Assembly (NCBI GenBank): GCA_030765235.1
Contig: JAVCCW010000028.1
Span: 24,744-88,743 of the forward strand
From: Candidatus Gorgyraea atricola
GTDB taxonomy: Bacteria > Omnitrophota > Gorgyraeia > Gorgyraeales > Gorgyraeaceae
Direction: 5' to 3'
Length of the DNA: 64,000 nt
Part shown: positions 3,411-24,873 of the stretch, piece after piece
Numbering within the stretch: the stretch's first letter is position 1
Layout of the letters: every line of letters starts with the position of its first letter
Translations under genes and position numbers: made by a program
Notes under the pieces: model-generated
What the model was told of the DNA's origin: nothing
Seen by the model: the letters and a program-made list of their open reading frames with translations, nothing else
Databases searched by the model: none

Positions 3411-3427
3411 CTTCTGTCATCTGAACG
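3346..3427 (+). repeat. tandem heptamer (ACAGAAR) x6 followed by its inverted complement (tctgtt...tctgtcatctg) at the yceD 3' end and stop
   Basis: acagaaaacagaaaacagaagacagaagacggaagacagaaa, then atctgttatctgacctctgacttctgtcatctg. Read directly from the sequence. Confidence 0.7.
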
Positions 3428-3448
3428 ATTATACAAGGAGGTTGAGAA

Positions 3449-3649: not shown

Positions 3650-3654
3650 TAGTG

Positions 3655-3765
3655 AGGGACAAGGGACATGGGACCCCATACGAGAATCAAAGATTTCGTA
3701 CGGGGCAGGCAAGAGACAAGGGGGTTTAGATACTCCTTGTCCCTTGTTGCTTGTCACTTGTCCCC
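3655..3765. repeat. palindromic mini-repeat, intergenic copy (GGGACAA heptamers + core hairpin + inverted CCTTGTC arm)
   Basis: gggacaagggacatgggaccccatacgagaatcaaagatttcgtacggggcaggcaagagacaaggg...ccttgtcccttgttgcttgtcacttgtcccc. The core ccccatacga...tcgtacgggg is an inverted repeat. Near-identical cores occur at 6091-6157 and 30067-30138. Confidence 0.8.
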
Positions 3766-3782
3766 AAAGATGAGGTTTTGTC

Positions 3783-4769: not shown

Positions 4770-4781
4770 AGAGGAGATGCG

Positions 4782-5759
4782 ATGCAGGAAGCTGGGATAT
4801 TAGGGTTAGGCTGTTATCTACCTCCAAAGAAATTAACGAACAGTGATATCGAAAAAATGGTAGATACAACGAATGAGTGGATAATTACTCGAACAGGCAT
4901 TAAAGAAAGAAGGATCGCGCCTAAAGAAGTTGCTGCGAGTGATCTTGGCGTCGAGGCGTCCAAGGCTGCTATTGAAAATGCCGGATTAAAACCAGAGGAT
5001 ATTGATTTAATTATTACAGCTACAATAACCCCTGACATGGCATTTCCTGCTACGGCGTGCATTATACAGGATAAGATCGGCGCAAAAAATGCTGCTGCAT
5101 TTGACATAAACGCTGCATGTACTGGTTTTGTTTATGGTATAGTCCTGGCCAAACAGTTTATTAATACAGGTACATATAATAATGTTTTAGTAGTGGGTAC
5201 AGAAAAGCTGACGAGCATTGTTGACTGGACAGATAGATCGACCTGTGTATTATTTGGAGATGGCGCAGGCGCGTGTGTAGTGGGAAAGAGTAAAGAAAAG
5301 AGGATAGTTTCTAGCTTCCTGGGCGCAGACGGCTCAGGCGGTCATCTTTTAAGTATGCCTGCGGGCGGCTCAAGATTACCTGCTACAGAGGATACAGTTA
5401 AAAATAAGCTGCATTTTCTTAAGATGGAAGGAAATGAGGTATTCAAGATCGCAGTCAGGATAATGGTGCAGGCTGCTGACAAGGCGATCAAGAAAGTAGG
5501 ACTTAAGCCCAGTGATATAAATCTAGTTATCCCTCATCAGGCAAATATCAGGATACTTATGGCAGTTGCAAAGAGATTGGGCCTGCCTGAAGAAAAGATT
5601 TTTTTGAATATAGAGAAATACGGAAATATGTCAGCAGCCTCTACAGCAGTTGCGCTGGCAGAAGCAGGCCAGCAGGGTAAGTTAAAGAAGGGCGATAATG
5701 TGGTGCTGGTTGCGTTTGGCGGAGGACTTACTTACGGAGCAGCTGTTATAAAATGGTAA
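4782..5759 (+). CDS. fabH: 3-oxoacyl-ACP synthase III
   Basis: 325 aa. LGLGCYLPPKKLTNSDIEKMVDTTNEWIITRTGIKERR, AACTGF active-site Cys region, and a C-terminal GGGLTYGAA. Confidence 0.9.
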   Translation: MQEAGILGLGCYLPPKKLTNSDIEKMVDTTNEWIITRTGIKERRIAPKEVAASDLGVEASKAAIENAGLKPEDIDLIITATITPDMAFPATACIIQDKIGAKNAAAFDINAACTGFVYGIVLAKQFINTGTYNNVLVVGTEKLTSIVDWTDRSTCVLFGDGAGACVVGKSKEKRIVSSFLGADGSGGHLLSMPAGGSRLPATEDTVKNKLHFLKMEGNEVFKIAVRIMVQAADKAIKKVGLKPSDINLVIPHQANIRILMAVAKRLGLPEEKIFLNIEKYGNMSAASTAVALAEAGQQGKLKKGDNVVLVAFGGGLTYGAAVIKW

Positions 5760-5760
5760 T

Positions 5761-5848
5761 AAATCGCGGAACCAGCGCAGAAGCTAAAGTAGACAAATCT
5801 GTCAGTGACTGATTTGTCTACTTTAGACGCGGAACTTACGCAGAAGCG
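5761..5848. repeat. intergenic element with aatcgcggaac terminus: 16-bp perfect stem-loop flanked by about 22-nt direct repeats
   Basis: atcgcggaaccagcgcagaagc | ctaaagtagacaaatc-tgtcagtgactg-gatttgtctactttag | acgcggaacttacgcagaagcg. The left terminus is shared with the elements at 21103 and 62511. Confidence 0.7.
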
Positions 5849-5854
5849 AAAAAT

Positions 5855-6826
5855 ATGAAAAATGTAAGTTATATTTTTCCAGGGCAGAGCGCGCAGCATG
5901 TTGGCATGGGCAAGGATCTGTATGAAAATTGCCCTGAGGCAAAAGACGCGTTTGATGAGGCAGAAAAGATTTTACCAGAGGCAGGCATTAAGAAACTCTG
6001 CTTTGAGGGACCTCTTGAAGAACTAACTCAGACAGCGAATAGTCAGGTGTGTATTCTTGTGGCTAGTGTGGCGGCGTTGAAGGCATTAGTGACAAGTGAC
6101 AAGGGACCCCATACGAAAATCGGAGATTTCGTACGGGGCAGGCAAGGGACAAGGGTTGTTGCTTGCGCAGGGCTTAGTTTGGGAGAACTCACGTCGCTTG
6201 TGGCTGCAGGAAGTATTGAATTTGCTGATGCTGTGCGCCTCGTTAGACGGCGTGGCGAATTAATGGAAGAGTCGTCCAGGAAGAATCCAGGCAGCATGGC
6301 CTCTATAATCGGCCTGGCGCTCGAGGATCTAAAAAAAGTTTGTGCTGAGACAGGCGCTGAGATAGCAAATCTAAATTGCCCTGGCCAGATAGTCATATCC
6401 GGGAGAAAAGAATCTGTTGAAAAGGCAATGCCCCTTGCGTTAGAAAAAGGCGCTAAAAAGGCAATAGCCTTAAAAGTGAGCGGAGGATTTCATTCTTCTT
6501 TAATGAAGGAGGCAGCAGATCTTTTTAAAATAGAACTGGACAAGGTAAAATTTTCAGCGCCTCAGATAGGTGTTGTCAGTAATGTAACCGCGGATTATGA
6601 AAAAACGCCTGACGAGATCAAAGATAATCTCGTTAAACAGCTATTTAGTCCAGTGCGCTGGGAAGAATCTATAAAGAGAATTGCCTCCTCAGATGGGGGC
6701 GTTGATATATTTTTTGAAATCGGCCCAGGGAAAGTGCTAAAAGGATTATTGCGTAGAATAGATGGTAATCTAAAGGTCCATAACATAGAAAAAGTACAAG
6801 ATATAGAAAATATAAAAAAGATGTAG
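5855..6826 (+). CDS. fabD: malonyl-CoA:ACP transacylase (carries an in-frame repeat insertion at 6091-6157)
   Basis: 323 aa. FPGQSAQHVGMG and the nucleophile elbow AGLSLGELTSL. The ORF is uninterrupted through the repeat. Confidence 0.85.
   Translation: MKNVSYIFPGQSAQHVGMGKDLYENCPEAKDAFDEAEKILPEAGIKKLCFEGPLEELTQTANSQVCILVASVAALKALVTSDKGPHTKIGDFVRGRQGTRVVACAGLSLGELTSLVAAGSIEFADAVRLVRRRGELMEESSRKNPGSMASIIGLALEDLKKVCAETGAEIANLNCPGQIVISGRKESVEKAMPLALEKGAKKAIALKVSGGFHSSLMKEAADLFKIELDKVKFSAPQIGVVSNVTADYEKTPDEIKDNLVKQLFSPVRWEESIKRIASSDGGVDIFFEIGPGKVLKGLLRRIDGNLKVHNIEKVQDIENIKKM
6091..6157. repeat. palindromic mini-repeat copy inside the fabD coding sequence, in-frame
   Basis: gacaagtgacaagggaccccatacgaaaatcggagatttcgtacggggcaggcaagggacaaggg, translated SDKGPHTKIGDFVRGRQGTR within FabD. 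Confidence 0.8.
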
Positions 6827-6952: not shown

Positions 6953-8191
6953 ATGAAACGTCGCGTAGTAATAACAGGTCTGGGCGTAATAGCGCCGAAT
7001 GGCGTGGGTAAGCGGGCGTACTGGGATGCCTTGAAGCAGGGGCGTTCTGGCATTCGCCGAATTACGCGTTTTGACCCGAGCCCTTTTCCCACACAGTTTG
7101 CTGGTGAGGCGGATTTTGACCCTGCCAAATTTATTTCCTTTAAACAGCTAAAGCGAATGGACAGGACTTCGCATCTTGCGGTTTCAGCAGCAAAGATGGC
7201 AGTAGAAGATGCAGGCCTTAATATTAAAGACGAAGATCCTGAGCGCATAGGTGTTGTCGTAGGCACTGCAATGGCTGGCCATGGCAGGATACTTGAACAG
7301 CATGATGTATTTATAAAAAAAGGGCCGATGAAAATAGATACATTTACTGCGATAGCGTCTTTTCCAGATGCGCCGTCGAGTCAGATTTCCATAGAGCTTG
7401 GCATTAATGGCCCGAGCTTTTCTATTGCCACTGCATGTTCTTCTGCCTCAGATGCGATCGGCTATGCCTTTAATGCGATCAGAAACAAAGATCTTGATAT
7501 AGTCATTATGGGAGGTGCTGATACTCCTATATTTCCACCTATACTTGGCGCATTTTGTGTCTTAAGGGCATTGTCAAAGAGAAACGATGCGCCTGAGAGG
7601 GCCTCAAGGCCGTTTGATAAGGAAAGGGATGGTTTTGTGCTTGGCGAAGGCGCAGGGATTTTAATACTGGAAGACCTGGAACATGCCTTAAAGCGCAATG
7701 CCCATGTCTATGGCGAGATCTCAGGTTTTGGCATGACATGCGATGCCTATCATATGACAAAACCAGAGCCTTCGGGAACTCAAGCAATAAGGGCATTGAA
7801 GCAGGCATTGCAGGACGCAAAGGTGAAACCAGCCGAGATACAATATATCAATGCGCACGGCACATCAACTCTACTGAATGACAAAAACGAAACGTTTATC
7901 ATAAAAGAGGTTTTTGGAAAATACGCGACTAAGCTTCCAATAAGTTCAATAAAATCCATGATAGGACATTTAATAGGCGCTGCTGGCAGCGTGGAATTAA
8001 TAGGCGCCTTGATGGCCATTGAAGAAGGTGTCATTCCGCCTACGATAAACTATGAAGCGCCTGATCCGGAATGTGATCTTGATTTTGTACCTAATAAGGC
8101 AAGAGAGGCAAAGGTAGACGTGCTCTTAAAGAATTCGTTTGGATTCGGAGGCAAAAACTCAGCGCTTGTGGTTAAGAGTTTTAAAGGATAA
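6953..8191 (+). CDS. fabF: 3-oxoacyl-ACP synthase II (KAS II family), copy 1
   Basis: 412 aa. MKRRVVITGLGVIAP, the ATACSS active-site Cys, and HxxH...GHLxGAAG C-terminal motifs. Confidence 0.85.
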   Translation: MKRRVVITGLGVIAPNGVGKRAYWDALKQGRSGIRRITRFDPSPFPTQFAGEADFDPAKFISFKQLKRMDRTSHLAVSAAKMAVEDAGLNIKDEDPERIGVVVGTAMAGHGRILEQHDVFIKKGPMKIDTFTAIASFPDAPSSQISIELGINGPSFSIATACSSASDAIGYAFNAIRNKDLDIVIMGGADTPIFPPILGAFCVLRALSKRNDAPERASRPFDKERDGFVLGEGAGILILEDLEHALKRNAHVYGEISGFGMTCDAYHMTKPEPSGTQAIRALKQALQDAKVKPAEIQYINAHGTSTLLNDKNETFIIKEVFGKYATKLPISSIKSMIGHLIGAAGSVELIGALMAIEEGVIPPTINYEAPDPECDLDFVPNKAREAKVDVLLKNSFGFGGKNSALVVKSFKG

Positions 8192-9365: not shown

Positions 9366-10601
9366 ATGAAACGTAGAGTTGTCGTTACAGGATTAGGAAT
9401 AATCTCACCCGTAGGCAATAATAAGGAAGCATTCTGGACGTCTCTAGTGAATGGCAAGGGCGGTATTGGCCCGCTCACTTCCTATGATTGCAAGGATTAT
9501 ACTTCGCGTATAGCAGGTGAGGTCAAGAATTTCGTGCCAGCCCCATTTATCCCAAAGAAAGAATTGCGCCGCATGGAGAAGTTTGTCCAGTTTGCTGTAA
9601 CAGCAGCTAAAGAGGCGGTAGATGATTCAGGCCTTGATATACCAAATGAAGACCCGTTCAGAATAGGTGTTTTGGTGGGTTCAGGCATAGGCAGCTTAAG
9701 GATAATAGAGGAGCAGCATAAGGTGATTCTTGATAGGGGTCCTTCAAGAATAACTCCGTTTCTGATACCCATGCTTATTGTGAATATGGCGTCAGGCCAT
9801 ATATCAATAATGTTTAAGGTGAAGGGTCCGAACTCTTGCACAACGACTGCCTGCGCTGCAGGTACCCACGCGCTCGGCAGTGCATTTAAGATAATTCAGA
9901 GAGGCGATGCTGATGCGATGATCGCAGGCGGCACAGAGAGCTGTCTCACGGCTCTTGGCGTAGGAGGCTTTTGCGCATTAAAAGCGCTTTCCACTAGAAA
10001 CAATGAGCCAGAAAGGGCGAGCCGGCCTTTTGATAAAGAAAGAGACGGATTTGTAATAGCAGAAGGTTCTGGAATGGTTATCTTAGAAGAGTATGAGCAT
10101 GCAAAGAAAAGAAATGCCAAGATATACGCAGAGGTGATCGGTTTTGGAATGAGCGGAGACGGCTATCACATGACAGCGCCTGATCCTACAGCAGAGAGTC
10201 CAGCTGAATGTATGAGAAGCGCATTAAAGGATGCGGGGATAAAGCCAGAAGACGTCTCCTATATAAATGCGCATGGTACATCTACAAACCTCAATGATAA
10301 AGTAGAAACACTTGCTATAAAAAAGGTTTTTGGCGATTACGCGAAGAAAGTACCGATTTCCTCAACAAAATCCATGACAGGCCATCTACTAGGCGCGGCA
10401 GGGGGCGTTGAATTTATCGCATGCTGCCTTGCTATTAAAGATGGAATAATCCCACCCACCATTAACTACGAAAATCCAGACCCGGACTGCGACCTCGACT
10501 ATGTGCCAAACAAGGCGCGTAAGGCAAAGGTCGATATCTGCATATCCAATTCCCTAGGTTTCGGCGGTCATAACGCCACCATTTGCCTCAAAAAACTCTA
10601 A
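9366..10601 (+). CDS. fabF: 3-oxoacyl-ACP synthase II (KAS family), copy 2
   Basis: 411 aa. MKRRVVVTGLGIISP. A paralog of copy 1 over its full length, with the same active-site architecture. Confidence 0.85.
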   Translation: MKRRVVVTGLGIISPVGNNKEAFWTSLVNGKGGIGPLTSYDCKDYTSRIAGEVKNFVPAPFIPKKELRRMEKFVQFAVTAAKEAVDDSGLDIPNEDPFRIGVLVGSGIGSLRIIEEQHKVILDRGPSRITPFLIPMLIVNMASGHISIMFKVKGPNSCTTTACAAGTHALGSAFKIIQRGDADAMIAGGTESCLTALGVGGFCALKALSTRNNEPERASRPFDKERDGFVIAEGSGMVILEEYEHAKKRNAKIYAEVIGFGMSGDGYHMTAPDPTAESPAECMRSALKDAGIKPEDVSYINAHGTSTNLNDKVETLAIKKVFGDYAKKVPISSTKSMTGHLLGAAGGVEFIACCLAIKDGIIPPTINYENPDPDCDLDYVPNKARKAKVDICISNSLGFGGHNATICLKKL

Positions 10602-10634
10602 ATTGTACGGTTTTATACTGTTTTTATTGATTTG

Positions 10635-10663
10635 TTGACAATAGGTGGCAATTATAGTATAAT
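10635..10663 (+). promoter_or_regulatory. consensus sigma70-type promoter for the giant subtilase gene
   Basis: TTGACA (10635-10640), a 17-nt spacer, then TATAAT (10658-10663). An AAGGAG RBS lies 5 nt before the TTG start at 10702. Confidence 0.6.
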
Positions 10664-10701
10664 ATAATGAACCAAATATCTTTACAAAAAAAGGAGTTTT
10701 T

Positions 10702-13700
10702 TTGTTTACTTCCCGCAAAATTTTATTATCTTTTTCATTACTAGCAGTATTTGTTTTTCTCGCCTGTGCCAGCCCTTCTGTAGCATATAGCATTCCTACT
10801 GCTGAAATTTCTTCAATCGAGTTTGACAGTCCTACTAGACATCTTGTTGTTAATGGTTCTGCCTATGGTTCAGATTTCAAGAGCTATAAAATAGAATATG
10901 GCACAGGTGAGTCACCTACATATTGGACGAGTCTTAAGGTTTCAGAAGACGAGGTTCCAGACGGTGTTTTGGCAACAGGCACAGTATTCTGTATCAAAGA
11001 AGGATATTATACAGTCAAGCTCACTGTAGAAGATACTAATGGAGATATTGCAGAAGATAGAGATAGATTTTATTACTCACCTTATTTTATTTTAAAGTGG
11101 AGTAAAAACAGTTGGTCTGTTTCAATGTTTTCTTTAATGATAGGTCTATTGACTGTAACTGACGATGAGGGCGAGACAGCTACAGCTCCACTGAAAATTC
11201 TTGTCAATGCTGTAGATGAGGATGAAGATGAGGAGGAAGACGAAGATAAAGATGATGTTAAGGGTGAGAAAAAGCCAATAAAAGATCTGCAGTATGTCCC
11301 AGGTGAGTTTATAGTAAAGTTTAAGCCTGAGGCGATTCAAAAGGCTGCATCTATAGATTCAGCAAAGCCTCTCTTCAAAAAGAAAAAAGGTAAGATGCCT
11401 GATACTTATATTCTTAAGATAGATCCGTCAGAGGATGTATTGGCTGCATGTAGCAGGTATAAGGCAAGGGATGATGTTGTATATGCTGAGCCAAATTATA
11501 TTTACACCATAGATGGTGAGCCAGATCCTATGCTCTCACAGCAGTGGTCTCATAAAAAGACACAGGCAGATCTTGGCTGGGATATTGAAACAGGCAACAA
11601 GGATATTGTAATAGCTATTATAGATACAGGTGTAGAGTATACTCACCCAGACCTAGCAGAAAACATCTGGACAAATGAAGGCGAAATCCCTAATAACGGA
11701 GAAGATGATGATAGGAATGGGTATGTAGATGATTACTATGGCTATGATTTTGCTAACCTTAATAATGACCCTAAAGATGAGAATAACCATGGCACGCACT
11801 GTGCAGGTATTGCGGGTGCAGTAGGGAATAATGGCATAGGCGTGGCAGGCGTGTGTCATTCTTGCTCAATAATGTCTTTAAGGGTAAGCTTAAAGCCCCC
11901 TAATGGCAATGTAGTGCGCACTATTTCACAAAGTGATCTTTTAGCGGAAGCACTTAAATATGCTGCTGATAATGGCGCTCGTATTATCTCTATAAGTCTC
12001 AGAGGAGCCAACTCTCAGACAGTAAAAGACGCGATAACATATGCCTATCAAAAGGGATGTGTGATTGTAGCAGGCGCAGGCAACGGAAATTCCAGTAATA
12101 AATGTTATCCTGCGGCATTTGACAATGTAATCGCAGTAGCTGCTACTAATTTTAAAGATCAAAAAACAGAGATTTCAAACTATGGCAGCTGGATAGATGT
12201 TGCAGCCCCAGGCGAGAATATTTTATCAACTGTTCGTTCAGGTTATGGATCTTCTTCAGGTACCTCAATGGCTGCTCCATACGTAGCAGGTCTAGCAGGA
12301 CTTATACTTTCAAAAGATAGTTCACTTAGCAATAGTGAAGTTAAAAAGGTGATAGTAAGTAGCGTAGATGGCTGTGATTCTGATAAATATATAGGTACAG
12401 GCAGGGTCAATGTCTATGAGGCATTAAAGGATGAAGATGTCCCTTGCACAACAGAGATAACCTCGCCAGAGCATGATGATATAATAATTGAAGATGTGGA
12501 AGTTATAGGTACTGCTACAGGGGATTACACGCTTTATTATGGAAAGGGCACATATCCCTCCAGGTGGGAAGAATTTGACTTAGGCGAGAGTACCACAGAG
12601 GATGTTTTAGGTACATGGAATATATCAAATTTAACTGAAGGGACATATTCAATTAGACTAGCAGTTGAGGATGATGGCTCAGTAGTATGCGAGGATAAGG
12701 TGGTTGTAGAGGTAAGGGTAAGGGTGAATGATCGCGTGATTTACGTTGATAATTCTGCTAGCGGTGCAAATGATGGTACGTCCTGGCAGGATGCATATAC
12801 AACGATTAGCGCTGCCTTTGATGACTTATACTATGAATCAGGCGTTACTATAAAGGTAGCACAGGGTAGCAGTGCTTATGAAGAGGATTTCACCAATATC
12901 ACTAATGGGACAGATTCAGGAGTAAAGGATAATCATAATTCCTTAGTAGCAAAAGATGAGCATGCCCCAATAATAGCTTCTACTTTTACACTCAAGGATG
13001 TCAAATACTTTAAGATAAAAGGATTCAAATTTATCAACGCAGGCCTTGATATTATAGACGCTTCAAATATAAAGGTGGTAAACAATACAATAGACTCCAA
13101 TAGAGATTTTGGTATCTATTTACTGGATAGTGCTAATAATACTGTAAAGAATACCATTGTTATAAATGGTGAGGACGCAGGTATATGCGCAGAAGGGATC
13201 TCCTCAGTCTCGTCTTCGTATAATAATCTCTGGAATAATGGTGTGAATTACAAAGGCTGTTCAAAAGGTGAAGGAGATATCTCTAGCGACCCATTATTCG
13301 TAGATCTTGCATCAGGTGATTATCATCTCAGGTCTGATTCTCTATGTATAGATGCAGGGGATCCTAACGATCCGCTTGATAGTGCGGGTTCGCGAGTGGA
13401 TATAGGATGTTATACAGGGTATACACATCCAAGGGATCTCAAGAAACCTGTACTAGATGATGCGCAGCCTAAAGGCGCAACTGGCCTTGAGGTATATGAA
13501 GGTCAGGAGGTATTATTTAAGGTATATTCTTTTGATCCTAAAGGAAGGGCTATTACTTATTCGCTTCCCTATTCTTCAGATCCTGGCTTTATAGAAAATT
13601 CACAAGAAGAGCCAAAGAGTGGTATTTACACATGGCAGACAGATTATAATGATGCTGATGATGGCGGCGAGTACTATGTAACCATTAGGGCTACTGCAGA

Positions 13701-16700
13701 TGATGGCCGTTATGCAGAGGATATATTCAAGATAGTCGTAAATAATTTTGATCCAGAGAGGGAGCGCGTAATTTATGTTGATAATTCTGCTACTGGTGCA
13801 AATGATGGCACCTCATGGGAAAATGCATATACAACGATCACTGCAGCATTGAATGACTTGCACTATGAATCAGGTGTTACTATAAAAATTGCCAAAGGTA
13901 ATGGAGCTTATAAGGAGGATTTCAGCAGTGCCATAGATGATTCAGATTCTGGCACATATGAACAGCCAAATTATTTAGTAGCTAAACAAGGAGGCATGCC
14001 AACAATCGTTTCTTTAGTTGATGGCTTTAGCATTGATAATGCTAGATACATTACTATAGATGGATTGGGATTTATGGCTATTCCAGGTCATACAGGTTTG
14101 CCTGAAGTTGTAAGCATTAATGATTCTTCCAGGATTATATTTAAAAATAATGCAGTCGAGGCATTTGCAATAGATCTTAATGGTCTGGTTCTGGAGAATT
14201 GTTCAGATATAAGAGTAGAAGATAATAAGATGCTTGCGCTAGAAACCTCAATTTTGGCAAAAGATATTAAGAATAGCTTTATCAAGAGTAATCGTATAGA
14301 TTGCAGCAAGATTGGAATTTCTCTTGAGGGAGGTCTTGGTAATTCAGTCAATTATAACTTAGTTGTAAACAGTAGTAATGAAGGCATATCTATATCTTAT
14401 GGCGGCTTTTGTTCTATAGTAAATAACACCATAGACTCTTCAAGCTCTCCTTCTAGCCGTGATGGGATTATAGCCCGCGGCACGCTTAAGACCATTGTAA
14501 AAAATAACATAATAACCAATAATCAAGGAGCGGGAATAAGATTAGACGATGGCGCATCAATTAGATCTTCATATAACAATGTCTGGAATAATGGTGCGGA
14601 CTATAAGGGTTGTTCGCCAGGTACGGGAGCCATCTCTAGTGATCCATTGTTTGTTAATGTTTCGTCAAGGGATTATCATCTTCAGCCTAATTCTCCGTGT
14701 ATAGATGCAGGAGATCCTAATGACCCTCTTGATAGTGAACTTTCCAGAATAGATATAGGGTGTCACACAGGATATAGAGCTACAATAGTAAACCATGATC
14801 CTCAAGTCACAATAACTTCAATTTCTCCAAACCCAGCTTTGGTAGGCCAGCCTGTTAAGTTTAAGGCAGCAATAAGCGACCCTGATGGAGCTGGCGACTT
14901 GTTATACGACACATGGGACTATGGGAATGGTATAACTTCAATGTCGCAAGGAGGTTGTTCAGGAATCGGGGCAATGACCTATTTAAAGTCCGGGGATTAC
15001 ACAGTGACAGTCAAGGTGTATGATAAATCTGGTGGTACAGCAGAAGCCACAGATACTATAACTGTAAATACACCTCCTACGCGGCCGCCTGAGATTGAAT
15101 CCATACCTGATCAGGAGATGAGCGAGGGTGAAGAGCTTACAGTTAACATTAATACACTAGATATTCCTGACTACGAATTGTATGCTATGCATGTTGAAAA
15201 ACTGCCAGAATTTGCAGATGATATTATTTTAGATTATCATAATGGACCTAGGATAGTTACTGCTATTGTATTCAGGCCTGGCTTTGAGGACAGCGGCATA
15301 TACCCTGACATAACAGTAGTCTTGTCTATGGGAAAGTATCGCATAGAGGAGAAGTTTACATTAAAGGTACAAAACACTAACCGTAAGCCCAGAGTCACAA
15401 TAACCTCTATCTCTCCAAATCCAGCCTTGGTAGGCGAACTTGTTGAGTTTACAGCCCAGATAAGCGATCCAGACGGAGATAGTGACTTACTATGCGACGC
15501 ATGGGATTATGGAAATGACATAGCTTCAATGACGCAAGGGGGATGTAATGGGTCCGGAAGAATGACCTATTTAAAATCAGGAGACTACACAGTAACAGTG
15601 ACTGTGCGTGATAAATCTGGTGCTGCAGCAACAGATTCAGCAGTAGTTACTGTAAATAAAAGGCCTGACCGAGAACCCTCTAAGCCCATCCTCAAGAACG
15701 ATATAGCTAGTCTAACTGTAAATGAAGGAGAGAAGATGCAATTTAGACTCGCTTCAGCTGACCCGGACGGAGACAAAATAACCTACATAAAGGTAGAAGG
15801 ACCAGGCTCAATAGATGGCCTTACAGGTGTATTCACCTGGCAGACCGTCTATGCTGACAGCGGTACATACCCTCTAAGAGTGAAGGCCACATCCACCAGC
15901 CTGGAATCAGCGGAGGCAGAGTTTACTCTCACTGTCGAAAATACTAACCGTCCACCTGCTGCTGAAATCACTTTTGTTTCTGCAAGGAAGATTACTGTAG
16001 GAGAATCTGTTAACTTCGAGGCTAAGATCTATGATCCTGATGGTGACTCTGATATAAGCTATGTTATATGGAGATTCGGAGATGGTAAATCTTCAACAGG
16101 AGGCCTAAGTCAAAAAGACATTGCACATCGCTTTGATAAGCCAGGCAGTTATGAGGTAACTGTAGAAGTAGTTGATAAACAAGGTGTATCTGTAAAGGCC
16201 GGCGGTGTTACCATAACGGTAGAGGAACGGCTGCCCATAATTGGCGACGTGGATTCTGATGGTAAGGTACTGATGTATGATGCTTCTTTGGTTGCTCAGT
16301 ATGTTGAGGGTCTGATCAATTTTAACCCTACACAGATATACGCTGCTGATGTAACTCGCAATGGCCAGGTAACACACCTGGATGCTAATTTTATTGCAAT
16401 GTATGTAGTGGGAAAGATAGCTAAATTACCCGTAGAAAACCATGCCCCTATCTTTGCACAAATAGGCAATAAGACCGTCTTAAAAGGCTCTACCCTTAAC
16501 TTCACCATCGAAGCAACTGACCCTGATGGAAATAATCTCACTTACTCACTCAAGAATCCGCCAGATGGTGCAGCCTTAAAGGGTAATACCTTCTCATGGA
16601 CACCTGCTAGTACCCAGAAAGTCACCTTTGAAGTCACTGACGGTGAACTCTCTAGCTCGAAGACCATCATCATAACTGTACAAGATAAAAAACAGCCTCC

Positions 16701-16713
16701 TGCAATTGACTAA
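10702..16713 (+). CDS. giant secreted multidomain subtilisin-like (S8) serine protease with beta-helix, PKD/Ig-like and dockerin modules (2003 aa)
   Basis: TTG start with RBS. The signal peptide MFTSRKILLSFSLLAVFVFLACAS may be a lipobox. An acidic DEDEDEEEDEDKDD linker follows. An I9-like propeptide precedes the S8 catalytic triad (IAIIDTGV, NHGTHCAG, GTSMAAPYVAG). Two roughly 340-aa right-handed beta-helix modules are present (VIYVDNSA[ST]GANDGTSW...NNT repeats...DPLFV..DYHL..CIDAGDPNDPLDS). Three PKD-like domains carry DPDGD motifs. The dockerin repeats are GDVDSDGKV...DVTRNGQV. Ig-like domains lie at the C-terminus. Confidence 0.8.
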   Translation: MFTSRKILLSFSLLAVFVFLACASPSVAYSIPTAEISSIEFDSPTRHLVVNGSAYGSDFKSYKIEYGTGESPTYWTSLKVSEDEVPDGVLATGTVFCIKEGYYTVKLTVEDTNGDIAEDRDRFYYSPYFILKWSKNSWSVSMFSLMIGLLTVTDDEGETATAPLKILVNAVDEDEDEEEDEDKDDVKGEKKPIKDLQYVPGEFIVKFKPEAIQKAASIDSAKPLFKKKKGKMPDTYILKIDPSEDVLAACSRYKARDDVVYAEPNYIYTIDGEPDPMLSQQWSHKKTQADLGWDIETGNKDIVIAIIDTGVEYTHPDLAENIWTNEGEIPNNGEDDDRNGYVDDYYGYDFANLNNDPKDENNHGTHCAGIAGAVGNNGIGVAGVCHSCSIMSLRVSLKPPNGNVVRTISQSDLLAEALKYAADNGARIISISLRGANSQTVKDAITYAYQKGCVIVAGAGNGNSSNKCYPAAFDNVIAVAATNFKDQKTEISNYGSWIDVAAPGENILSTVRSGYGSSSGTSMAAPYVAGLAGLILSKDSSLSNSEVKKVIVSSVDGCDSDKYIGTGRVNVYEALKDEDVPCTTEITSPEHDDIIIEDVEVIGTATGDYTLYYGKGTYPSRWEEFDLGESTTEDVLGTWNISNLTEGTYSIRLAVEDDGSVVCEDKVVVEVRVRVNDRVIYVDNSASGANDGTSWQDAYTTISAAFDDLYYESGVTIKVAQGSSAYEEDFTNITNGTDSGVKDNHNSLVAKDEHAPIIASTFTLKDVKYFKIKGFKFINAGLDIIDASNIKVVNNTIDSNRDFGIYLLDSANNTVKNTIVINGEDAGICAEGISSVSSSYNNLWNNGVNYKGCSKGEGDISSDPLFVDLASGDYHLRSDSLCIDAGDPNDPLDSAGSRVDIGCYTGYTHPRDLKKPVLDDAQPKGATGLEVYEGQEVLFKVYSFDPKGRAITYSLPYSSDPGFIENSQEEPKSGIYTWQTDYNDADDGGEYYVTIRATADDGRYAEDIFKIVVNNFDPERERVIYVDNSATGANDGTSWENAYTTITAALNDLHYESGVTIKIAKGNGAYKEDFSSAIDDSDSGTYEQPNYLVAKQGGMPTIVSLVDGFSIDNARYITIDGLGFMAIPGHTGLPEVVSINDSSRIIFKNNAVEAFAIDLNGLVLENCSDIRVEDNKMLALETSILAKDIKNSFIKSNRIDCSKIGISLEGGLGNSVNYNLVVNSSNEGISISYGGFCSIVNNTIDSSSSPSSRDGIIARGTLKTIVKNNIITNNQGAGIRLDDGASIRSSYNNVWNNGADYKGCSPGTGAISSDPLFVNVSSRDYHLQPNSPCIDAGDPNDPLDSELSRIDIGCHTGYRATIVNHDPQVTITSISPNPALVGQPVKFKAAISDPDGAGDLLYDTWDYGNGITSMSQGGCSGIGAMTYLKSGDYTVTVKVYDKSGGTAEATDTITVNTPPTRPPEIESIPDQEMSEGEELTVNINTLDIPDYELYAMHVEKLPEFADDIILDYHNGPRIVTAIVFRPGFEDSGIYPDITVVLSMGKYRIEEKFTLKVQNTNRKPRVTITSISPNPALVGELVEFTAQISDPDGDSDLLCDAWDYGNDIASMTQGGCNGSGRMTYLKSGDYTVTVTVRDKSGAAATDSAVVTVNKRPDREPSKPILKNDIASLTVNEGEKMQFRLASADPDGDKITYIKVEGPGSIDGLTGVFTWQTVYADSGTYPLRVKATSTSLESAEAEFTLTVENTNRPPAAEITFVSARKITVGESVNFEAKIYDPDGDSDISYVIWRFGDGKSSTGGLSQKDIAHRFDKPGSYEVTVEVVDKQGVSVKAGGVTITVEERLPIIGDVDSDGKVLMYDASLVAQYVEGLINFNPTQIYAADVTRNGQVTHLDANFIAMYVVGKIAKLPVENHAPIFAQIGNKTVLKGSTLNFTIEATDPDGNNLTYSLKNPPDGAALKGNTFSWTPASTQKVTFEVTDGELSSSKTIIITVQDKKQPPAID
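12736..14775 (+). repeat. internal tandem duplication of an about 1-kb beta-helix module within the giant gene
   Basis: gtgatttacgttgataattctgctagcggtgcaaatgatggtacg at 12736 matches gtaatttatgttgataattctgctactggtgcaaatgatggcacc at 13768. Both modules end with ...CIDAGDPNDPLDS..R[IV]DIGC[YH]TGY. Confidence 0.75.
14803..15658 (+). repeat. two roughly 80%-identical PKD-domain repeats (14803-15070 and 15391-15658) within the giant gene
   Basis: [QR]VTITSISPNPALVG...ISDPDG..DLL[YC]D.WDYGN.I.SM[ST]QGGC.G.G.MTYLKSGDYTVTV.V.DKSG repeated. Confidence 0.75.
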
Positions 16714-16939
16714 TTAGCCTTTCGTGAATCAAACCTCAACTAAGATTAGCACACCTTCGTTACAATCCACCTTTTGTATTGATAGTGCAAAAATACCTTG
16801 ATTTTTTTAACATCTTTGGTGTAAACTTAGATTATAATGCGGATAGAATTAAATCTTGTTGACAACTTTTGTTTTATGCTGTGCGCTAAAGTTGTAAACT
16901 AGTCATGTTCGACTATTTTAAACATATACTTAAAATAGC

Positions 16940-16968
16940 TTGACTATTTTAAAGGCATAGTGTATATT
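16940..16968 (+). promoter_or_regulatory. candidate promoter for the AAA/DUF4143 ATPase gene
   Basis: TTGACT (16940-16945), a 17-nt spacer, then TATATT (16963-16968). This implies a very short leader before the ATG at 16980. Confidence 0.35.
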
Positions 16969-16979
16969 TATATTAGATC

Positions 16980-18194
16980 ATGATAGATAGAATATTGTAT
17001 AATATAGCGTTCTCAGACGAATGGGGCAGGCAGATGAGGTTTATAACCGGGCCTCGTCAATCAGGTAAGACTACCCTTGCGAAGTTGAAATTAGAACAAG
17101 AGAACACCAAAGGGTTGTATTATCTATGGGATCTTAGGTCGATCAGAAATAGATATAAAGACAATGAACTTTTTTTTACGCAGGATGCAGCATCATCAGC
17201 GCATAAATTATGGATATGCTTTGATGAAATCCATAAGATGCCCAAGTGGAAAAATATTTTAAAGGGCATATATGATTCCTCTTTTGATAATTATAATTTT
17301 ATCGTTACTGGATCAGCGAAGTTTGATATAAAAAGACGCGCGGGAGACAGCCTATCAGGAAGATATTTCACCTTCCATCTTTTTCCTTTATGTCTTTGTG
17401 AGCTGATCGGCGCCAAATCTTTCTTGATCCCGTCCTCTTCCAACGCGTCGGATTTTATTAAACAGAAAATAGAACGTAATATCAAGGCCCATGACCAATT
17501 AAATTCCTTAATAGAATATAGCGGTTTTCCCGAACCTTTTACAAGGCAGTCTAAAAAATTTCAGGCTAAATGGTCACAGGATTATTTAGACACGGTTATT
17601 AAAGAAGACATAGGAGCGCTTACAAGAATAATAGACAGGGAATATTTATATGATCTATATAAATTACTGCCAGAGATGGCCGGCAGCCCCATATCTGAGT
17701 CATCCTTAGCCTCTCATTTGGAAGTAAGTCCGCCGACTATAAAGAATTATCTTAAAAGGTTAGAAGATTTTTATTTAGCTTTTAGAATATACCCTTACTC
17801 GAAAAATATAAAGCGCTCCTTACTAAGGGCATCAAAGTGCTATCTTTACGATTGGTCGCGCGTTAAAGAACCTGGAAATAGATTTGAAAATTATGTAGCG
17901 GTTGAGTTAAAGACGCAGATTACTTTATGGAATGATGCCCTGGGCGGGGATTATCGGCTTTTTTATATTAGAAATAAAGATAAAAAAGAAATAGATTTTT
18001 TAATAACGGTACAAGACAAACCATGGCTTTTAATCGAAGCTAAATCTTCCGATAGCCCTGTTTCAAGGCATTGTTTTGACATTCAAAGGATGCTGGGCAA
18101 TATTCCTTTGGTGCAGCTTTGCATGGAAAAGGATGTTTGTTTGCTGGAGAAGAAGAATGTATATAGAATATCCGCAGATCGTTTTTTAAGTTGA
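16980..18194 (+). CDS. AAA+ ATPase with C-terminal DUF4143-like domain
   Basis: 404 aa. Walker A GPRQSGKTT and Walker B ICFDEIH. The architecture matches the widespread AAA_14/DUF4143 ATP-binding proteins. Preceded by a 266-nt AT-rich intergenic region. Confidence 0.7.
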   Translation: MIDRILYNIAFSDEWGRQMRFITGPRQSGKTTLAKLKLEQENTKGLYYLWDLRSIRNRYKDNELFFTQDAASSAHKLWICFDEIHKMPKWKNILKGIYDSSFDNYNFIVTGSAKFDIKRRAGDSLSGRYFTFHLFPLCLCELIGAKSFLIPSSSNASDFIKQKIERNIKAHDQLNSLIEYSGFPEPFTRQSKKFQAKWSQDYLDTVIKEDIGALTRIIDREYLYDLYKLLPEMAGSPISESSLASHLEVSPPTIKNYLKRLEDFYLAFRIYPYSKNIKRSLLRASKCYLYDWSRVKEPGNRFENYVAVELKTQITLWNDALGGDYRLFYIRNKDKKEIDFLITVQDKPWLLIEAKSSDSPVSRHCFDIQRMLGNIPLVQLCMEKDVCLLEKKNVYRISADRFLS

Positions 18195-18215: not shown

Positions 18216-19916
18216 ATGCTGATTAAAAAAACTATACTCTTAGGTGAAAGGCTTATCCAGAAAGGCCTGATTTCTCGTCGGGAACTAGATAAGGGTTTGA
18301 AGGAGCACGAGAAAACAGGCCTTTTTCTTGGGACTACTCTGGTAAGGCTTGGTTTTATCAGTGAAGAAGAACTGTATCCTATTCTTGCCGAGCAGTTGAA
18401 GATGGAGTATGTTAAGATAAAAGAACTTACTATTGATTCCGTGATTTTTGAAAAAGTCCCTGCCAGATATGCCTGCCATTACAGGCTCATGCCAGTAAAA
18501 TTTGATAAAGACATTTTGAGTGTTGCGGTCTCAGATCCTCTGGATATTAGGTCACTGGATGACCTGAGACTTCTTCTGGGTTGTGATGTGATCGGGTTAT
18601 TGGCAACTGAGTCAGACATAACCGAGGCCATCAGGAAATATTATGGCATTGGCGCAGAGACCATAGAAGAGATAGTGGATACGGGCGATATGGCCAAAGA
18701 TATAGAGCTGTCAGCAAAGACAACAGAGGATATAGAGGATCTTGCAGAGGACGCGTCGATTATAAAATTTGTAAATCAGGTCCTGGTGCAGGCAGTTAAA
18801 GACAGGGTCACGGATATTCATATTGAGCCGTATGAGGATGAGCTTAAGGTACGATACAGGGTGGATGGTGTTTTGTACGATATCCCAATCCCGCAGAATA
18901 TAAAATATTTTCAGGCTGCTATTGTTTCCAGGATAAAAATTATGGCGAGCCTGGATATTGCTGAGCGCAGGCTCCCGCAGGATGGGAGGATAAAGATCAA
19001 GGTAGGAGGGGAAGAACTGGATCTAAGGATATCCATACTTCCCACGCAGTTTGGAGAAAGCGTTGATATCAGGCTTTTAAGCGGCACAATGCTGTATAGC
19101 CTGAAGAATCTTGGACTTTCTTCTTCTGATCAAAAGATCATGGAAGTCCTTATCAAAAAGCCGCACGGGATCATATTTGTAACAGGACCTACAGGCAGCG
19201 GAAAGACTACTACGCTTTACGCGTGTTTATCCAAGATAAACAACAAAGACAAAAAGATCATTACCATAGAAGACCCCATAGAATATCAATTAAAGGGCGT
19301 GACGCAGATCCAGATCCACCCTCGCATTGGGCTTAGTTTCGCAGCAGGTCTGCGCTCAATGCTTCGTCATGACCCAGATATCATGATGGTGGGCGAGGTA
19401 AGGGATTTTGAAACAGCAGAGATAACTATTCGCGTTGCATTGACAGGGCATCTCGTGTTCAGTACTTTGCATACAAATGATGCTGCAGGAGGCATGGCGC
19501 GTTTGTTGGATATGGGTGTGGAGCCATATCTTGCTGCGAGTTCTGTTGAATGTTTTGCTGCGCAGCGCCTTGTAAGGCTGATCTGTCCGAAGTGTAAGAT
19601 TGAGAAAAGACCTGATAAAAAGGTCTTGAAGGAATTTGGAATAAAAGAGAAAAATATAAGTAAGGTAATTATTTTTGAGGGAAAAGGATGTGAGTCATGC
19701 AAGTTTACAGGCTACAGGGGCCGCACAGGCATATATGAGTTTTTACTTATGCATGAAGAGATCCGAGAACTAGTTCTTCACCGCTCATCAGCTGACCAGA
19801 TAAAGAAAAAGGCATTGGAGTTAGGCATGCACACGCTCCGCATGGATGGATGGGAAAAAGTGAAAAAGGGCCTGACAACGATAGACGAGGTGATCAGGGT
19901 TACAAAGGAAGACTAA
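18216..19916 (+). CDS. gspE: type II secretion/type IV pilus assembly ATPase (GspE/PilB family)
   Basis: 566 aa. N-terminal T2SSE_N domain with two MshEN-like motifs (LGERLIQKGLISRRELDKGL and LGTTLVRLGFISEEELYPILAEQL). Walker A VTGPTGSGKTTTLYA, and a C-terminal tetracysteine CPKC...CESC. Confidence 0.85.
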   Translation: MLIKKTILLGERLIQKGLISRRELDKGLKEHEKTGLFLGTTLVRLGFISEEELYPILAEQLKMEYVKIKELTIDSVIFEKVPARYACHYRLMPVKFDKDILSVAVSDPLDIRSLDDLRLLLGCDVIGLLATESDITEAIRKYYGIGAETIEEIVDTGDMAKDIELSAKTTEDIEDLAEDASIIKFVNQVLVQAVKDRVTDIHIEPYEDELKVRYRVDGVLYDIPIPQNIKYFQAAIVSRIKIMASLDIAERRLPQDGRIKIKVGGEELDLRISILPTQFGESVDIRLLSGTMLYSLKNLGLSSSDQKIMEVLIKKPHGIIFVTGPTGSGKTTTLYACLSKINNKDKKIITIEDPIEYQLKGVTQIQIHPRIGLSFAAGLRSMLRHDPDIMMVGEVRDFETAEITIRVALTGHLVFSTLHTNDAAGGMARLLDMGVEPYLAASSVECFAAQRLVRLICPKCKIEKRPDKKVLKEFGIKEKNISKVIIFEGKGCESCKFTGYRGRTGIYEFLLMHEEIRELVLHRSSADQIKKKALELGMHTLRMDGWEKVKKGLTTIDEVIRVTKED

Positions 19917-21101
19917 ATGCCTAAATTTATTTACAAAGCGAAAAAAGGGCCGAAAGAGATTATAGAGGGAAAGATCGAGGCTGAATCAGAGGCCCAGGCT
20001 GTAAAGCAGCTCATGCAGCAGGGCTATTATCCTATATGGGTTAAAGAGACCTCGACCTTAGCCTCACAAAAAAGAAGACCTGTAAAAACAAAGGACCTTG
20101 CGATTTTTACAAGGCAGCTCTCAGAGCTCTTGGATTCAGGCCTGGCCCTGTACGAGGCATTAAATATAATTGAAAATCAAATAGAGCTGCCGGGGTTAAA
20201 AGAGATCATAAGAGGTATTAGGGAAAAGGTAAGGGATGGCAATACCTTTTCTGAATCTTTGAAAGACTACCCAGGTGTTTTTTCAGAATTATATGTAAAT
20301 CTGGTTCGCTCAGGTGAGGCAGGGAGCATGCTTAGGGACGTGCTCAATAATATCGCGGATTTTCTGGAAAAAGAAGAGGATGTAAAGTCCAGGGTATTGG
20401 CTGCACTGGCATATCCAATGCTGATGCTGATCGTAGGTGCTGGTACAATATTTATTCTAACAGGATTTGTTATTCCAAAATTGGCCAATATGTTTATTGA
20501 GATGGGCGAGGTCTTACCTCTTCCCACAAGGATGCTTATTGGATTTAGTGATTTTATAAGGAGTTACTGGATATTATTAGCCATTTTTATAGGTGGCGCG
20601 ATATTTTTTGTTGCAAGGAGTAAATCCAAGGGGGCTATAGACAGGTTCAAATTAAAATTGCCTATTATTGGAGCGCTAGTAAGGGATAGTGAGCTTGCTA
20701 GATTCTCACGCACGCTTTCAATGCTTCTTAAAAATGGCGTGGCGATTCTTTCTGCATTAAAGATTACCTCTGATGTAATCGAAAATGAGGTTGTAAAAGC
20801 CGAGGCGCTTAGGATCTATAATGATGTTAGAGAAGGTTCATCGCTTGCAGCTGCGATAAAAAAGAATACCAGCTTTCCCCAGTTTATCGTAAATATGGCA
20901 ACGATAGGAGAAGAGGGTGGGATGCTGGATAAGACCTTACTTAAGGCTGCAAAGAGTTACGAGCTCGAGAGCGACAGAAAGATCAAGATACTCTCATCTC
21001 TTTTAGAGCCAGCTATAATATTGATCATGGGTGTGGTAGTAGGTTTTATCGTAATATCAATGCTTTTGCCAGTATTTCAGATATCGTTGACTGCACATTG
21101 A
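19917..21101 (+). CDS. gspF: type II secretion inner-membrane platform protein (GspF/PilC family)
   Basis: 394 aa. Duplicated T2SSF domains and three TM segments. The start codon abuts the gspE stop. Confidence 0.85.
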   Translation: MPKFIYKAKKGPKEIIEGKIEAESEAQAVKQLMQQGYYPIWVKETSTLASQKRRPVKTKDLAIFTRQLSELLDSGLALYEALNIIENQIELPGLKEIIRGIREKVRDGNTFSESLKDYPGVFSELYVNLVRSGEAGSMLRDVLNNIADFLEKEEDVKSRVLAALAYPMLMLIVGAGTIFILTGFVIPKLANMFIEMGEVLPLPTRMLIGFSDFIRSYWILLAIFIGGAIFFVARSKSKGAIDRFKLKLPIIGALVRDSELARFSRTLSMLLKNGVAILSALKITSDVIENEVVKAEALRIYNDVREGSSLAAAIKKNTSFPQFIVNMATIGEEGGMLDKTLLKAAKSYELESDRKIKILSSLLEPAIILIMGVVVGFIVISMLLPVFQISLTAH

Positions 21102-21102
21102 C

Positions 21103-21134
21103 AAATCGCGGAACTTCCGCGTAGTTCAGCGATT
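21103..21134. repeat. minimal copy of the aatcgcggaac...gttcagcgatt palindromic element, directly after the gspF stop
   Basis: aaatcgcggaacttccgcgtagttcagcgatt. The termini are shared with the element at 62511-62628, and the left terminus with 5761-5848. Confidence 0.65.
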
Positions 21135-21150
21135 ACTATAGGAGGTAATT

Positions 21151-21549
21151 ATGAGTAGTCAAAAAGGTTTTACATTGATAGAACTGATGCTTGTCGTAAT
21201 AATCATAGGGGTGCTTGCGTCATTAGTAGTGCCCAGGCTTGTGGGCCGTTCAGAAGAGGCAAGGATTGCCGCTGCAAAGGCAGATATAAATGCCAATATT
21301 TCAGTGGCGCTTGATCTATATGAGCTGGACAATGGAAAATACCCGTCTGACCTGAATGCCTTAAAGGCAAAATCAGGCTCGGACGCAAACTGGAAAGGCC
21401 CATATCTTAAAAGAAGCGTAAAAGATCCATGGGGAAATTCTTATGTATACAGAAGCCCAGGGGATCATGACACTGATTACGATCTTTATTCTTATGGCCC
21501 TGACGCTGCAGAGGGCGGAGGCGATGATATTACGAACTGGGAAGAATAA
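21151..21549 (+). CDS. gspG: type II secretion major pseudopilin GspG
   Basis: 132 aa. Prepilin leader MSSQKG|FTLIELMLVVIIIGVLASLVVPRL. The GspG-specific motif DPWGNSYVY is present. Confidence 0.85.
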   Translation: MSSQKGFTLIELMLVVIIIGVLASLVVPRLVGRSEEARIAAAKADINANISVALDLYELDNGKYPSDLNALKAKSGSDANWKGPYLKRSVKDPWGNSYVYRSPGDHDTDYDLYSYGPDAAEGGGDDITNWEE

Positions 21550-21784
21550 AAAAGGGATTTTATTGCTGGAAGTATTAGTCAGCACTACGATTCTTTCAGT
21601 TTGTTTTATATTTATAATAAGTTCTTTTACGAGATCTATAAGGGCGATAGACCTCTCAGGGGATTATTTCAGGCTAGGCCTGGTTCTTGAGCAGGAATTA
21701 TACGAGGCCCTTGATTGCGAATTAAAACAAGGTCTTCCGGATTTTGACAAAATTTATGAAGAAAAAAGGGTTTACCCTGATTGA
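21524..21784 (+). CDS. minor pseudopilin (GspH/GspI-like)
   Basis: Start chosen at MILRTGKNKKG|ILLLEVLVSTTIL, a prepilin-like leader plus hydrophobic helix. Overlaps the gspG 3' end by 26 nt. The ORF track's upstream extension is rejected. Confidence 0.5.
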   Translation: MILRTGKNKKGILLLEVLVSTTILSVCFIFIISSFTRSIRAIDLSGDYFRLGLVLEQELYEALDCELKQGLPDFDKIYEEKRVYPD

Positions 21785-24778: not shown

Positions 24779-24798
24779 AGAGAAGTTAGGAGTTGACC

Positions 24799-24872: not shown

Positions 24873-24873
24873 T

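Follow-up and report, generated by a model that had tools for sequence, protein, structure and literature searches.

The window analysed here, a stretch of 64,000 nucleotides (nt) of Candidatus Gorgyraea atricola DNA (contig JAVCCW010000028.1, positions 24,744 to 88,743), contains on its + strand an open reading frame (ORF), from 10702 to 16713, that codes for a modular secreted peptidase of family S8. The protein is of a known type; all its parts are known and only their full combination is rare. We consider it reasonably probable that it is an exported zymogen of the subtilisin family (S8), acting as an extracellular protease with a substrate-binding tail and a dockerin as tether. The ORF comprises 2003 codons, starts with TTG, is stop-free in the ORF list and in translation, and is preceded by a GGAG ribosome-binding site (10693 to 10696, + strand), read from the sequence, 5 nt ahead of the start. 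An earlier note, made from the letters alone, had described a single ORF of 2003 amino acids (aa), and this frame is real and intact. The encoded protein (216.6 kDa, acidic, pI 4.5) is identical to NCBI MDP8230501.1, 'MAG: S8 family serine peptidase [Candidatus Gorgyraea atricola]', encoded on a contig of 119 kb; the gene product is genuine and already deposited, under an automatic one-domain name. Candidatus Gorgyraea atricola was named from a metagenome-assembled genome (MAG) of Ace Lake, Antarctica, and belongs to the phylum Omnitrophota (PMC8542988).

The S8 domain and its prodomain

The domain map was drawn from scans with Pfam and NCBIfam, run on the full-length protein and on pieces of it, from internal similarity searches and from two AlphaFold (AF2) models, and Pfam matches were counted above the curated cut-offs. 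For the whole protein these were Peptidase_S8, Fervidolysin_NPro-like, Beta_helix, NosD, Disaggr_assoc, PKD, PKD_4, He_PIG, Big_9 and Dockerin_1. Both Peptidase_S8 and Dockerin_1, assigned in the earlier note, are among them, and the large secreted or surface protease with the domain order first proposed is supported by the map. All domains described below are encoded on the + strand.

The S8 catalytic domain (aa 291-582, positions 11572 to 12447) matches PF00082 over residues 300-555 with an E-value of 1.5e-52 and 179 bits, against a cut-off of 21.8. The complete Asp/His/Ser triad claimed earlier is present as D308 (11623-11625), H363 (11788-11790) and S522 (12265-12267), with N461 (12082-12084) as the oxyanion residue. 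All four residues occupy invariant columns in an alignment of 43 sequences and align with the catalytic motifs of MCP-01 and thermitase. In the PDB, the domain matched 3vv3 (E 8.5e-58) and thermitase (1THM, E 2e-55) with 36-40% identity, and Foldseek aligned its model to 3vv3 and 1thm with TM scores of 0.87-0.95 relative to the target. The Asp-His-Ser order together with the oxyanion Asn, the profile score above threshold and the subtilisin fold place the domain in family S8. It is followed by an Ig-like domain (aa 583-670, 12448 to 12711) with a predicted local distance difference test (pLDDT) value of about 96, a motif found in the consensus of the 43 homologs and a weak Big_7 match. This post-S8 domain is conserved across the S8 subfamily to which the protease belongs, and is a paralog of an Ig-like beta-sandwich located at the N-terminus (aa 33-134, 10798 to 11103), which has 34% identity to aa 583-666 and is modelled by AF2 as beta-strands with pLDDT 63-88.

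The S8 domain is preceded by a subtilase prodomain of the fervidolysin N-pro type (aa 198-270, 11293 to 11511), which matches PF22148 over residues 187-265 (E 2e-11, 38.8 bits against a cut-off of 21) and is folded with confidence in the AF2 model. The earlier description of an I9 propeptide was right in that a prodomain of that kind is present, but wrong as to its family; PF05922 (Pfam I9) has no match in the protein and this label was rejected in favour of PF22148. The mature N-terminus of thermitase aligns at D275, and by comparison with other subtilases the autoprocessing site is predicted near residues 268-275 (Y268-D275).

Between the N-terminal Ig-like domain and the prodomain lies a predicted disordered linker (aa 137-194, 11110 to 11283; pLDDT < 50), which stands out in the AF2 model from the confident folds of the prodomain, S8 and Ig domains, and is not conserved in the only ortholog found, a protein of 2039 aa. 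It includes a PKD-like remnant, LLTVTDDEGETATAPLKILV, and an acidic run, DEDEDEEEDEDKDD, the latter corresponding to the acidic linker noticed earlier. A frameshift in the oddest stretch of this N-terminal part (aa 126-165) was considered and rejected; the other two frames are full of stops, and the stretch is non-conserved and predicted to be disordered.

The beta-helix modules and the dockerin tail

Two beta-helix modules follow the protease part, the first and shorter at aa 678-908 (231 aa, 12733 to 13425), with Beta_helix, NosD, DUF5123 and Disaggr_assoc matches, and the second at aa 1022-1358 (337 aa, 13765 to 14775), with about 100 extra residues of coils. The signature VIYVDNSA occurs at residues 679 and 1023, and DPLFV/CIDAGDPNDPLDS at 863/882 and 1314/1333. 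Two modules with these signatures had been announced in the earlier note and both stand, but not as units of about 340 aa each, since that figure corresponds to the 344-residue period of the repeat, Ig-like domain included. The modules share 52-64% identity at both ends. Their fold is a right-handed three-sheet beta-helix of PbH1-type coils, which places them in the CASH/pectate-lyase-like superfamily and is confirmed by the AlphaFold model, the fold search and the family profile. A single-sequence PDB search with module 2 returned nothing below E 0.4; the family profile of the module reached BcAlyPL6 (E 5e-18), 9rx2 and AlgE4. The C-terminal motif DPLFV..GDYHL..SPCIDAGD is a general cap motif, common to these three proteins. 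Most homologs of the module are free-standing proteins of 450-600 aa annotated as 'right-handed parallel beta-helix repeat' proteins, many with sorting domains of the type IX secretion system (T9SS) and from uncultured lineages.

In an alignment of 63 family members, conservation was found in the Asn ladder, in the Gly-Ile repeat positions and in the N- and C-terminal caps, and no conserved cluster of Asp, Lys, Arg or His residues was seen in the coils. Because conservation is limited to structural positions and no acid/base cluster is seen in the coils, a binding or scaffolding role appears more likely for the beta-helices than catalysis. The modules had been described as lyase-like or carbohydrate-binding; the polysaccharide lyase (PL)-like fold is there, but no conserved Asp/Lys/Arg constellation was seen in the coils of the 63 sequences. 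The modules are no more than 13-17% identical to the PL9 pectate lyase Pel9A (1RU4) and to PL6 enzymes, the family alignment shows no identifiable conserved residues for catalysis or Ca binding, and on these sequence comparisons membership in a PL family is not supported. A 'disaggregatase' reading was also rejected, the Disaggr_assoc match covering mainly the C-terminal beta-helix cap and not indicating an activity by itself.

The remainder of the tail is made of PKD and Ig-like units, in agreement with the three PKD domains and the Ig-like domains listed earlier. The PKD domains are three full copies (PF00801, PF18911) with the cores WDYGNG, WDYGND and WRFGDG: PKD 1 (aa 1364-1455, 14791 to 15066; PF00801 E 1.3e-11, 75% identity to PKD 2), PKD 2 (aa 1560-1651, 15379 to 15654; Pfam and internal similarity) and PKD 3 (aa 1749-1843, 15946 to 16230; best stretches for PF00801 and PF18911). 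The Ig-like units were recognised by PF05345, Big_9 or internal similarity. Domain A, between the two beta-helices (aa 911-1010, 13432 to 13731), resembles He_PIG only in the internal comparison (33% identity to aa 1657-1747), and domain B (aa 1459-1558, 15076 to 15375) shows weak internal similarity to the He_PIG units; neither gave a Pfam match when scanned alone. Domain C (aa 1657-1747, 15670 to 15942) is a He_PIG/Big_9 domain with a PF05345 E-value of 3.9e-8, and domain D (aa 1909-1995, 16426 to 16686) was assigned to the same type by a Pfam scan of the piece.

The dockerin (aa 1848-1902, 16243 to 16407) is of type I, as indicated by its two tandem Ca-loop repeats, DVDSDGKVLMYD and DVTRNGQVTHLD, the second with Thr at position 3, and by a PF00404 score of 37.8 bits against a cut-off of 22.9. 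It aligns over its full length with the solved dockerins 8x39, a tandem dockerin of a 'serine protease' (E 6e-11), and 4uyq, from A. cellulolyticus ScaB (E 7e-9), and the dockerin-like pair of calcium loops seen earlier is borne out. The domain is internal and not terminal, as it is followed by He_PIG domain D. A search with the dockerin and He_PIG tail alone matched only 7 small He_PIG proteins and therefore does not tell how widespread the tail is. On the contig of the ortholog, the gene located 5' of it (171-6689 of ENA ERZ24794671 NODE_27478, L001) codes for a CARDB/PKD/Big_7/He_PIG protein of 2172 aa that ends in the same dockerin and He_PIG tail. Aligned with the window protein, it is 62% identical in 251 columns, tail included, and by our own count about 80% identical in the last 165 or so aa, so that identity is higher in the tail than in the remainder of the alignment. 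Because this neighbour, a different large protein, ends in the same two domains, dockerin and He_PIG look like a portable tail of several large exoproteins in the lineage, as would be expected for a common docking function.

Export, gene neighbourhood and competing readings

The signal peptide recognised earlier (aa 1-28, 10702 to 10785) contains R5 and K6 followed by a 15-residue hydrophobic core, and a likely signal peptidase I site (SVA|YS). Cleavage by signal peptidase I is most likely from this sequence, and since the signal peptide is the sole hydrophobic segment of the protein, no membrane anchor is expected elsewhere. The possible lipobox FLAC of the earlier note is not conserved. It deviates from the [LVI][ASTVI][GAS]C pattern at positions -3 and -2, and reads FLAY in the ortholog, whose signal peptide is otherwise well conserved; the exchange of Cys22 for Tyr argues against a conserved lipoprotein anchor.

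A sigma-70-type promoter is predicted just upstream of the gene (10635 to 10663, + strand), where TTGACA and TATAAT are separated by 17 nt. The site agrees with the consensus at 12 of 12 positions, as no other site in the 64-kb window does, where 0.03 perfect matches would be expected by chance; at the level of sequence, the textbook promoter announced earlier is thereby upheld. A complete set of type II secretion system (T2SS) genes (18216 to 28386, + strand) begins 1.5 kb downstream of the protease gene. It codes for GspE, GspF, GspG, minor pseudopilins, a GspK-like protein, PilN- and PilO-domain proteins, an AAA_22 (ExeA-like) ATPase and a secretin. The T2SS had been placed immediately downstream; the proximity was correct, but an AAA_14/DUF4143 ATPase gene (16980 to 18194, + strand) intervenes, ending 21 nt before gspE, which starts at 18216. 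This ATPase gene is preceded by a promoter-like site, TTGACT-17-TATATT, at 16940-16968 (10 of 12 matches). Given this site of its own and the short distance to gspE, the T2SS operon may begin with the ATPase gene, which would then be an unusual T2SS companion. No intrinsic terminator was found by a simple scan 3' of the protease gene, where the 266-nt intergenic region contains only weak AT-rich inverted repeats. Large Omnitrophota surface proteins, some of them dockerin-bearing and all far larger than the window protease, are reported to be typically flanked by loci resembling those of T2SS or type IV pili (T4P) (bioRxiv 10.1101/2023.11.21.568195; 10.64898/2026.06.07.730766). By its adjacency, the T2SS is the most plausible export route of the protease across the outer membrane.

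According to the reading we favour, the Sec signal peptide, probably cut by signal peptidase I, would take the protein across the inner membrane, and the adjacent T2SS would take it across the outer membrane. The fervidolysin-type prodomain would act as intramolecular chaperone and inhibitor until an autocatalytic cut near residue 270, which would release a mature enzyme of about 186 kDa and leave behind some 27 kDa made up of N-terminal Ig domain, linker and prodomain. The mature enzyme would then begin with S8 and its Ig partner, behind which about 1,330 residues of tail extend. In this tail, the two CASH-type beta-helix modules, the three PKD domains and the four He_PIG-like Ig beads may bind polymeric, probably glycan-bearing, substrates or surfaces. 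The single Ca-dependent dockerin, as part of the portable dockerin and He_PIG tail, may hold the enzyme to a partner of the cohesin type, located either on the cell or on a target. Overall, the enzyme could serve to degrade complex or glycosylated protein material outside the cell, either to acquire nutrients or to attack the envelope of a partner cell.

Several observations weigh against this reading. What connects the T2SS to the protease is their adjacency, and the AAA_14 gene with its own promoter-like site lies between them; on the contig of the ortholog, the upstream neighbourhood is different and the downstream side is cut off. No cohesin domain (PF00963), for which the earlier note had proposed a search of the genome, was found in any window ORF of at least 120 aa or in the ortholog's neighbour protein. 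The fold search placed the beta-helices nearest to polysaccharide lyases and hydrolases, because of which we keep catalysis as a possibility. Finally, FLAC fits the permissive PROSITE-style lipobox pattern PS51257, and the protein might be lipidated in this species.

Alternative explanations were weighed as well. The protein could be bifunctional, one or both beta-helix modules being lyases, hydrolases or epimerases that act together with S8 on glycoprotein or exopolysaccharide matrices, as the profile matches to BcAlyPL6 and AlgE4 and the Pfam matches to Disaggr_assoc and DUF5123 would suggest. We regard this as unlikely in view of the lack of a conserved Asp/Lys/Arg/His cluster in the coils of the 63-sequence alignment, the small size of module 1, about 100 residues below module 2, the lack of a significant match in the single-sequence PDB search, and the occurrence of the fold in the non-catalytic proteins PfbA (an adhesin), NosD and Vag8. 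The multi-functional enzyme of the earlier note is in this respect unproven, and the pairwise domain combinations are not unusual either. Somewhat less likely still is a protein that is primarily an adhesin or surface fibre, attached through its Ig/PKD/beta-helix/dockerin array to a host, prey or matrix, with S8 serving mainly for self-maturation or for processing of partner surface proteins. Two thirds of the protein are indeed non-protease beads and dockerin, S8 domains near the N-termini of Omnitrophota giants have been suggested to serve self-cleavage and the dockerin-rich giants attachment, and beta-helix adhesins of the PfbA type are among the fold matches. However, the S8 domain has an active site conserved in full and is part of a broad subfamily whose members look like degradative secreted subtilases, the core arrangement is typical of free-acting proteases, and the protein has one dockerin only and neither the TSP3 repeats nor the transmembrane anchors of the dockerin-type giants.

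Anchoring of the protein as a lipoprotein in the inner or outer membrane via Cys22, instead of release through the T2SS, has in our judgement a slim chance. FLAC does come after a typical n- and h-region and satisfies the permissive pattern, but Tyr replaces the cysteine in the ortholog, F at -3 and L at -2 are non-canonical, and, judging from subtilase biology, autoprocessing of the prodomain would cut the mature enzyme off such an anchor anyway. The least probable explanation by far is an assembly artefact or pseudogene, in which a chimeric or collapsed repeat region mimics one long gene. The MAG source and the internal repeats of the gene would allow for it, but the frame is open over 6 kb (about 1e-55 by chance, as we estimate from base composition), stops close the alternative frames, and a separate ENA contig holds the 2039-aa ortholog of matching architecture. 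Moreover, the internal DNA repeats of the gene are only 74-75% identical, which makes a repeat collapse unlikely, and misassembly of this kind was rejected on that ground. The extracellular, dockerin-tethered protease can also be extended, as a speculation to which we give little weight, to a non-cellulosomal cohesin-dockerin 'attack/degradation complex' on a host-dependent Omnitrophota cell. The protease would be exported by the T2SS, released by autoprocessing and recaptured through the lineage-specific portable tail, and would, together with active glycan-cleaving beta-helices, breach glycoprotein envelopes such as the S-layers or sheaths of partner or prey cells.

The protease gene is preceded by a fatty-acid synthesis cluster with plsX, fabH, fabD, fabF, fabG, an acyl carrier protein (ACP) gene and a second fabF. 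Two paralogous genes for FabF-type ketoacyl synthases (6953-8191 and 9366-10601) bracket fabG and the ACP gene, directly 5' of the protease gene. In the region 10001-18000, the G+C content of the protease and AAA_14 genes is 0.38-0.41, against 0.43-0.46 in the flanking fab and gspE genes, which could reflect amino-acid composition or later acquisition. Within the T2SS cluster, the secretin gene (26425-28386) codes for Secretin, two Secretin_N and N0/STN domains plus a C-terminal TonB_C-like domain (residues 584-652, E 1.6e-5). Ahead of it lie the gene of the AAA_22 ExeA-like ATPase (25097-25924) and an ORF of 161 aa with no Pfam match (25924-26409), an arrangement resembling GspA/GspB. A long cluster for glycan or envelope biosynthesis extends from 38296 to 60490, with two DegT-type aminotransferases, several GT2, GT9 and GT28-type transferases, a B12-binding radical SAM enzyme and methyltransferases, as well as UDP-GlcNAc 2-epimerase, PMT_2-like, CDP-glycerol glycerophosphotransferase-like and MGDG-synthase-like genes. 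Nearly all genes of the window (1-64000) are on the + strand, the sole sizeable gene on the minus strand coding for a GAF-GGDEF diguanylate cyclase (35532-36653); GC skew is positive in each 2-kb bin and the cumulative skew is monotonic. The window thus seems to lie within one replichore with strong gene co-orientation. Scans for tRNA genes and Rfam families in the window gave no matches. Proteins identical to those of the first and last complete genes of the window are encoded on short contigs of 1.5-2 kb (L021, L022) of another ENA assembly, ERZ27315536, and therefore the same or a nearly identical organism was sampled again elsewhere.

Relatives and comparison with known systems

Among the 120 best homologs of the whole protein, S8 was combined with Beta_helix in 22 and with a dockerin in 9, and all three were present in only two, the window protein itself (P0001) and its ortholog (P0002). 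The combination of S8, beta-helix and dockerin had been called unusual, which is true of the triple but not of S8 with either partner. The whole architecture was found in one other protein only, the 2039-aa ortholog, which is encoded on a 13-kb ENA contig and contains two dockerins; identity to the window protein is 67% in the first 788 columns of the alignment, which take in the prodomain, S8 and the beginning of the beta-helix region, and 49% in the remaining columns. Six metagenomic homologs with S8 and beta-helix (P0020, P0035, P0037, P0043, P0047 and P0051) were rescanned. All six show the order prodomain, S8, at least one beta-helix and Ig/PKD, belong to the same S8 subfamily with 37-44% identity over the protease part, and differ from the window protein in that none has a dockerin. 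A scan of GTDB representative genomes returned no close ortholog, only distant beta-helix relatives with 31-49% identity, and a literature search found no experimental study of proteins with the order prodomain, S8, beta-helix and Ig/PKD.

Related beta-helix modules were also seen in three consecutive genes with HINT/PT-HINT ends in the Omnitrophota single-amplified genome (SAG) AM-311-J20 (JBHPFN010000038.1, L004, 91-10404). One of these genes codes for a protein of 1550 aa with Propeptide_C25, Peptidase_C25 (gingipain-like) and two beta-helices. Tandem beta-helices are therefore joined to a protease of another class as well, with a different tail, and since this C25 protease has the same kind of tandem beta-helices, the comparison points to an accessory role for these modules beside proteases.

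Omnitrophota are uncultured ultra-small bacteria suspected to be host-dependent or predatory, whose mode of action on cells and polymers is largely unknown. At present the protein adds one more modular secreted subtilase. With about 2 thousand aa, against 30 to 140 thousand for the large proteins of the phylum, its gene is a tractable candidate for extracellular machinery tied to T2SS-like loci and dockerin proteins, and offers an intact protease, a strong predicted promoter and a tail module common to another large exoprotein. Fusions that join a protease to tandem beta-helices, with S8 in the window protein and C25 in the other Omnitrophota genome, recur and form a candidate functional pairing. 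If a cohesin partner exists, non-cellulosomal cohesin-dockerin assemblies would be extended to the Omnitrophota.

Among systems already described, the catalytic domain is matched best, both by sequence and by fold, by the secreted S8A subtilases deseasin MCP-01 of Pseudoalteromonas sp. SM9913 (3VV3) and thermitase (1THM). The core of prodomain, S8 and Ig is typical of free-acting proteases such as these two, and the NGxDDDxNGYxDD insertion after the catalytic Asp is common to the window protein and MCP-01, which also has a C-terminal PKD domain that aids in substrate binding. In contrast to the window protein, MCP-01 and thermitase are small and have no beta-helix modules, no dockerin, no Ig domain before the prodomain and no tail of 1,300 residues.

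The partial combinations have precedents. Subt-Dockerin and Subt-NosD pairings were catalogued in a survey of 2008 (PMC2605481), the latter exemplified by Methanosarcina acetivorans NP_616940.1 (PMC2605481), with which the window protein has the 'Subt-NosD' pairing in common. Outside cellulosomes, S8 with a dockerin occurs in Halobacterium NP_280653.1 (PMC2605481) and in Candidatus Stygibacter (Cloacimonadota) from the same lake, whose genome also codes for a cohesin-rich scaffoldin (PMC8542988). Together with 8X39, these proteins combine an S8 or serine protease with one or more type-I dockerins, like the window protein. They have no beta-helix modules, whereas the window protein has such modules, and its dockerin is internal and single, with no cohesin known.

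The dockerin-type giants of the Omnitrophota are proteins of at least about 30,000 aa with many dockerin and TSP3 repeats, C-terminal transmembrane anchors and a SecA-like domain (West-Roberts et al. 2023, bioRxiv 10.1101/2023.11.21.568195). The window protein resembles them in its phylum, in being large and extracellular, in its dockerin and in its location near a T2SS/T4P-like locus, and some of the giants have an N-terminal S8 domain as well. With 2003 aa, one dockerin, no TSP3 or SecA matches and no transmembrane segment past the signal peptide, it falls outside this type, and the T2SS genes, which are found upstream of the giants, lie downstream of the window protease.

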